Source: Escherichia coli (lineage in GTDB: Bacteria; Pseudomonadota; Gammaproteobacteria; Enterobacterales; Enterobacteriaceae). Taken from it: DNA of 64,000 nt. Position 1 is the first letter of the stretch. Every line of letters begins with the position of its first letter. Under the pieces are notes generated by a model that did no database searches, was not told the origin of the DNA, and saw nothing but the letters and a program-made list of their open reading frames with translations. Below are positions 62,871 to 63,140 of the stretch, piece by piece. The translations under genes and the position numbers were made by a program. The stretch lies in the NCBI RefSeq assembly GCF_011045215.1, contig NZ_CP049201.1; one strand, given 5' to 3'.

Positions 62871-63140
62871 GGATCCTGGGTATTAAAAAGAAGATCTATT
62901 TATTTAGAGATCTGTTCTATTGTGATCTCTTATTAGGATCGCACTGCCCTGTGGATAACAAGGATCCGGCTTTTAAGATCAACAACCTGGAAAGGATCAT
63001 TAACTGTGAATGATCGGTGATCCTGGACCGTATAAGCTGGGATCAGAATGAGGGGTTATACACAACTCAAAAACTGAACAACGGTTGTTCTTTGGATAAC
63101 TACCGGTTGATCCAAGCTTCCTGACAGAGTTATCCACAGT
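62871..63140. other. oriC: Chromosomal replication origin oriC
   Basis: Starts at GGATCC; three AT-rich 13-mers gatctatttattt / gatctgttctatt / gatctcttattag (62893-62936); DnaA boxes tgtggataa (62950-62958), ttatacaca, ttatccaca (63130-63138); dense GATC sites. Confidence 0.9.

Follow-up and report, generated by a model that had tools for sequence, protein, structure and literature searches.

A K-12-type chromosomal replication origin, oriC, at its native site between mnmG and mioC in an Escherichia coli genome

We conclude that positions 62871-63140 of the window, by which we mean the whole 64,000-nucleotide stretch of Escherichia coli DNA analysed here, are almost certainly oriC, the replication origin of the chromosome of an E. 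coli strain or of a very close relative such as Shigella, lying at its native site between mnmG and mioC. An alignment of window positions 62780-63165 with K-12 strain MG1655 (NC_000913.3), which covers the entire annotated origin_of_replication feature, matches at 385 of 386 bases, and the sole difference falls at position 63083, which is G in our sequence and A in K-12. The MG1655 feature (3925744-3925975, between mnmG and mioC) corresponds to window 62893-63124, starting at the L 13-mer and ending before DnaA box R4. Classical oriC numbering counts from the BamHI site GGATCC (62871-62876) as position 1; hence 62871-63140 are positions 1-270, and the classical minimal origin (positions 23-267) occupies 62893-63137. 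The K-12 origin resembles ours in every element, in order, spacing and orientation, in its mnmG and mioC flanks and in the eleven GATC sites of the minimal origin, and differs only in the A at 63083, the eighth base of the 15-bp Fis site.

The stretch carries the traits that characterize an enterobacterial (E. coli-type) oriC: homology to the experimentally defined K-12 minimal oriC; three AT-rich 13-mers at the left edge that form the DNA unwinding element (DUE); oppositely oriented DnaA boxes R1 and R4 at the ends, enclosing R2; low-affinity DnaA arrays (R5M, tau1/2, I1-3, C1-3), by identity with K-12; a site for IHF in the R1-R5M interval and one for Fis between R2 and C3; eleven GATC sites, all but one within the DUE and left half; placement between gidA/mnmG and mioC; and, on a local proxy only, a change of sign in GC skew. 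An earlier note on this DNA had claimed an oriC with all canonical elements, citing the 13-mers, R1, R4 and dense GATC sites in the expected order, and we located each of these in that order; the elements that it did not name (R2, R5M, R3, the IHF, Fis and Rob sites and the low-affinity block) are likewise present, and the alignment to K-12 that it proposed as a check returned the single mismatch at 63083. Its claim that the window is thereby anchored at the replication origin is borne out by the near-identity to MG1655 oriC and by the native mnmG-oriC-mioC-asnC context. The oriC described here is a textbook feature, already known, and adds nothing to knowledge of oriC itself. Its value is that of a landmark, which places the window at the origin, gives it the orientation of the MG1655 forward strand, assigns 98% of it to the left replichore and aids the reading of gene orientation, skew and gene dosage across the rest of the window.

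The origin is nearly universal in the species and is shared, element by element, with related genera. Of 5426 complete E. coli genomes, 5424 gave a match to the 270-bp oriC sequence, typically at a single place (median of one), and in at least 20 genomes among the matches listed the identity extended over all 270 bp. A wild E. coli allele, such as that of strain 120899 (NZ_CP025916.1), resembles ours completely, with nothing different within oriC; outside oriC, the best matches among complete genomes are 97.9-99.1% identical to the rest of the window. The query found 5456 places in the 5424 genomes, a few assemblies having two matches and 2 genomes having none; the paired matches could be real duplications, single matches broken in two or artefacts of assembly. 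For comparison across species, a scan of species-representative genomes with the strict pattern TGTGGATAANNNGGATCNNNNTTTTAAGATC yielded 8 loci, and we aligned the window and MG1655 with seven of them, from E. albertii, E. whittamii, Pluralibacter, Raoultella and Enterobacteriaceae bacterium 89, omitting the eighth, an E. coli contig. In the resulting set of nine sequences, to which all column counts given here refer, the columns of R1, GGATC and TTTTAAGATC are invariant by construction, as part of the search pattern. With pattern-fixed columns excluded, 66 of the 75 columns in the named 13-mers and R boxes are invariant, as are 103 of the 171 in the remaining origin; R5M, R4 and the R 13-mer show no variation at all. 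The origins of E. albertii, E. whittamii, Pluralibacter and Raoultella share with ours the M and R 13-mers, R1, R5M, the tau2-I1-I2 block, R2, R3/C2, R4 and 12 GATC sites, and differ in the spacers, namely between the R 13-mer and R1, in the right IHF region, in the Fis region and in C1 before R4.

The DUE lies at the left edge of the minimal origin. Its three 13-mers, all read on the plus strand, are L (62893-62905, GATCTATTTATTT), which has one mismatch to the consensus GATCTNTTNTTTT and is the same in MG1655; M (62909-62921, GATCTGTTCTATT), also with one mismatch; and R (62924-62936, GATCTCTTATTAG), with two mismatches by direct reading. The M 13-mer is invariant at 11 of 13 columns and the R 13-mer at 13 of 13. 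AGATCT 6-mers occur at L (62892-62897) and M (62908-62913), and each 13-mer contains a TT[A/G]T motif (TTAT at 62900 in L, TTGT at 62920 in M and TTAT at 62930 in R). The L 13-mer is flanked, just beyond the minimal origin, by an AT-cluster on the plus strand (62877-62892, TGGGTATTAAAAAGAA, 75% A+T) with 12 of 16 columns invariant, in keeping with the AT-rich element described beside the L-DUE (PMC10380432). The DUE as a whole is 73% A+T and has the lowest duplex stability of any 60-bp stretch in 62001-64000, ranking in the top 0.08% for instability among 60-bp windows outside the low-GC island described below.

To the right of the DUE, three DnaA boxes match the consensus TTATNCACA perfectly. 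Box R1 (62950-62958, minus strand, TTATCCACA) is of high affinity and marks the left end of the DnaA-oligomerization region (DOR); R2 (63056-63064, plus strand, TTATACACA) lies mid-origin; and R4 (63130-63138, plus strand, TTATCCACA), also of high affinity, marks the right DOR end in the orientation opposite to R1, as expected from the description of R1 and R4 as perfect consensus boxes at both DOR ends (PMC5716108). R4 is invariant at 9 of 9 columns and R2 at 8 of 9, with the N position alone varying. These three boxes fall within 189 bp, far above chance: the expectation is 2.1 perfect boxes per 64 kb and about 0.009 per 270 bp. One further perfect box TTATCCACA stands isolated at 29805-29813 (minus strand), within or near tnaB by offset from an annotated relative and distant from the known DnaA-regulated sites; given the 2.1 boxes expected per window, it is probably a chance occurrence.

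Between the perfect boxes lie the low-affinity arrays. On the left, R5M (63005-63013, minus strand, TCATTCACA) has one mismatch to TTWTNCACA, is of low affinity and is invariant at 9 of 9 columns, and it is followed by a block holding tau2, I1 and I2 (63014-63052, not assigned to a strand) that is the same as in MG1655 and includes a candidate I1 at 63027-63035 (minus strand, TTATACGGT); from R5M to I2 (63005-63049), 41 of 45 columns are invariant. On the right, R3 (63091-63099, minus strand, TTATCCAAA) has one mismatch to the consensus, overlaps the low-affinity sites C3/C2 and is the same as in MG1655, as is the adjoining block of C2, I3 and C1 (63100-63126, likewise without strand), which includes the GATC at 63109, weak DnaA-box candidates at 63108-63116 and 63118-63126, and an invariant GGATAACTACCGGTTGATC. 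Because the sequence is the same as that of K-12 throughout, we take tau1/2, I2, I3 and C1-3 to be present; for tau2, I2, C2, I3 and C1 we provisionally adopt the 9-mer boundaries of published maps, and on the same footing presume tau1 to lie in the interval between R1 and R5M, near the IHF site.

The sites for accessory proteins were located with the oriC site sequences given for IHF, H-NS, Fis and Rob in table 2 of PMC4285127. The IHF core (62977-62989, plus strand) is an exact GATCAACAACCTG between R1 and R5M; the H-NS site (63010-63025) is an exact ATGATCGGTGATCCTG that overlaps the left low-affinity block; and the site for Rob, the right oriC-binding protein (63143-63162, plus strand), is an exact ATCGCACGATCTGTATACTT just beyond the minimal origin. 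The Fis site (63076-63090, plus strand), between R2 and C3, reads GAACAACGGTTGTTC here versus GAACAACAGTTGTTC in that table and bears the sole K-12 difference. With G at 63083, the 15-mer retains the Fis consensus GnnYAnnnnnTRnnC (PMC10380432), of which 63083 is the degenerate centre. The Fis site is also the least conserved of the named elements, with 5 of 15 columns invariant, and the one difference from K-12 therefore sits where the origin is least constrained. A 60-mer with G at 63083 occurs exactly in 1270 of 5403 E. coli genomes, including that of an O157:H7 strain (NZ_AP018488.1), and the position is tri-allelic in the species (strain 95-3192 has C, beside the A of K-12 and the G found here) and varies among A, G and C in the aligned loci of other Enterobacteriaceae too. 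We regard the G as a common natural allele from which no functional change is expected. The centre of a Fis site, although usually degenerate, is thought to prefer A/T for bending, and a G:C pair there might conceivably weaken Fis binding and slightly shift initiation timing or its coupling to growth rate; we consider this unlikely, but if true it would concern about a quarter of E. coli strains, those with G. Relaxed constraint could account for the three alleles at 63083, as could lineage-specific tuning.

GATC sites are concentrated in the origin to a degree unmatched in any other 270-bp window of the 64 kb, in which they form the densest cluster: 12 occur in the 270 bp, 11 of them in positions 23-267, where base composition predicts about one. 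Within the minimal origin, positions 23-171 hold ten and the eleventh is at position 239 (window 63109), a spread that agrees with the published description of eleven GATC sites in oriC, ten within the DUE and left half (PMC10380432). All 12 are kept in each of the nine aligned sequences. The second-densest cluster of the window, with up to 10 sites per 270 bp, lies at 22834-23326 in the dnaA promoter region, which we take to be the known autoregulated and sequestered dnaA promoter and which holds a perfect DnaA box (TTATCCACA) at 23087-23095. The dnaA coding region has a cluster of its own (21787-22322), with up to 9 sites per 270 bp, which is overlapped by a strong Rfam match (22287-22367, 102 bits) to AsdA, the antisense RNA of dnaA mRNA.

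The flanking genes are those expected of the native site. The origin sits in an intergenic gap of 378 bp between minus-strand open reading frames of 629 and 147 amino acids, which the earlier note had called mnmG and mioC, and family models bear out both names: the left one (60893-62782), transcribed away from oriC, matches the TIGR00136 mnmG_gidA equivalog at 1017 bits (cutoff 525), and the right one (63161-63604), transcribed towards oriC, matches the NF006531 MioC equivalog at 245 bits (cutoff 158). Annotated relatives have the gene order rsmG, mnmG, gap, mioC, asnC, asnA, and our family scan places RsmG after MnmG in the window as well. A sigma-70 promoter-like site on the minus strand (62836-62863; TTCTCA, a 16-nt spacer and TAGAAT, with 9 of 12 consensus matches) lies upstream of mnmG and is directed into it, away from oriC; from its position, it is probably the gidA/mnmG promoter, PgidA. 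Upstream of mioC, a DnaA-box-like 9-mer at 63664-63672 (minus strand, TTTTCCACA; TGTGGAAAA on the plus strand) fits TTWTNCACA, and we presume from general knowledge that it serves as the DnaA box of the mioC promoter. The earlier note had also taken the origin to confirm how the surrounding operons are oriented, and this holds only loosely: the window runs in the direction of the MG1655 forward strand, and the 19 kb from mnmG to phoU is transcribed away from oriC, but 15 of the 41 genes left of oriC in an annotated relative point towards it. Those 15 origin-facing genes comprise rpmH to yieH plus one gene of the island; on the other side, mioC and asnC both point towards oriC.

GC skew places a change of sign at the same locus. 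The plus strand has negative skew across the window, and because only 860 bp of the window lie to the right of oriC, we joined to it, at an exact 30-mer overlap, a 49-kb continuation from strain 95-3192 (98.6% identical over 47 kb), giving a construct of 113 kb. On this construct, skew is -0.030 to the left of oriC versus +0.044 to the right, and oriC begins 125 bp from the cumulative G-C minimum, which is at 62746. The earlier note had named a skew minimum elsewhere in the full genome as the outcome that would speak against an origin here; on the 113-kb construct, which serves as a local proxy for the whole-chromosome analysis, the minimum adjoins oriC.

Because the sequence is nearly identical to that of K-12, the mechanism established in K-12 can be applied here, with the element inventory and roles taken from earlier work (PMC5716108, PMC10380432, PMC4285127). 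DnaA would occupy the high-affinity boxes R1, R2 and R4 for most of the cell cycle, and rising ATP-DnaA would cooperatively fill the oppositely oriented low-affinity arrays, the left one made up of R5M, tau2, I1 and I2 and the right one of C3, C2, I3 and C1, while IHF would bend the DNA between R1 and R5M. The AT-rich 13-mers would melt next, with the T-rich strand (TT[A/G]T) held by DnaA at R1 and R5M, and DnaC would then load DnaB helicase, one for each direction. After firing, SeqA would bind the eleven hemimethylated GATC sites and, during part of the cycle, keep both DnaA and Dam from reaching the origin, which would prevent re-initiation, and Fis, bound between R2 and C3, would be expected to exert mild modulation at most. 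From the near-identity to the K-12 origin, we infer that this sequence would support DnaA-dependent unwinding and minichromosome replication.

Other explanations of the stretch must be weighed against this assignment, the simplest being that a handful of short motifs have fallen together by chance in intergenic DNA that lacks origin function. Similar motifs do occur elsewhere in the window, with 13-mer-like sequences at 7780 and 27707 and perfect DnaA boxes at 23087 and 29805. However, a chance cluster would not be expected to reproduce 385 of 386 bases of an experimentally defined K-12 origin, to place three perfect boxes in 189 bp against the expected 0.009 or so per 270 bp, to be enriched twelvefold in GATC or to have its elements conserved across genera; we rejected this explanation, which we consider vanishingly improbable, on the K-12 identity, the GATC density and the cross-species conservation. 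An origin brought in by a plasmid or phage and integrated into the chromosome is hardly conceivable, given that the oriC sequence had no plasmid match among 20,395 records and is flanked by core chromosomal genes in conserved order, and we found no point in its support; matches to oriC lie on chromosomes only, and we rejected this reading also.

The remaining possibility is that the elements are intact and yet idle, the stretch being a duplicated or relocated copy of oriC in a chromosome whose replication starts elsewhere. The excess of matches over genomes (5456 in 5424) means that some assemblies hold two, which lends this idea its one point of support. The median, however, is one oriC per genome, the copy in the window occupies its native mnmG-oriC-mioC-asnC context, local GC skew switches sign there and no element is damaged, and we judge an unused copy to be very improbable. 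We therefore retain the reading of 62871-63140 as the native chromosomal oriC, which no observation made here contradicts.

Several features of the window away from the origin merit description. A low-GC island of 31-35% GC, against about 51% around it, spans roughly 36.6-44.0 kb (36590-44000) between yieH and phoU, at the position where K-12 carries the bgl region, cbrB-cbrC-yieK-yieL-bglHBFG. Two of its open reading frames, of 808 amino acids (36726-39152, minus strand) and 835 amino acids (41092-43599, minus strand), are paralogous, with 31% identity, and neither has a match in Pfam or NCBIfam; RefSeq labels the counterpart of the 835-amino-acid frame 'type III effector protein'. A pentapeptide-repeat gene (39435-40622, plus strand) is split here into 198 and 187 amino acids and is intact at 395 amino acids in strain 95-3192, and the 835-amino-acid frame is intact here and annotated as a pseudogene with an internal stop in that strain, a case of reciprocal decay between strains. 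Divergence from strain 95-3192, the closest island-bearing genome, peaks at 36000-39000, in the 808-amino-acid frame, with up to 119 differences per kb against a background of about 2-15 per kb, a pattern that suggests fast evolution or recombination of that gene.

Comparison with complete E. coli RefSeq genomes gave best identities of 99.1% over 1-17200, 97.9% over 30000-54000 and 98.6% over 17100-64000; a close match to the whole window is absent from this set, so that either the source strain is missing from it or the region is a mosaic. The segment 1-17200 matches E. coli genomes at a median of 38 places each, which implies that some dispersed repeat, REP/BIME or IS-like, lies within it. 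Three matches to Rfam families exceed the gathering score: the sRNA STnc410 at 52434-52591 (plus strand, 188 bits), ES036/CssrF at 16768-16810 (plus strand, 47 bits) and a ROSE_2 thermoregulator at 11315-11387 (minus strand, 100 bits), the last of which is presumably the leader of ibpA.
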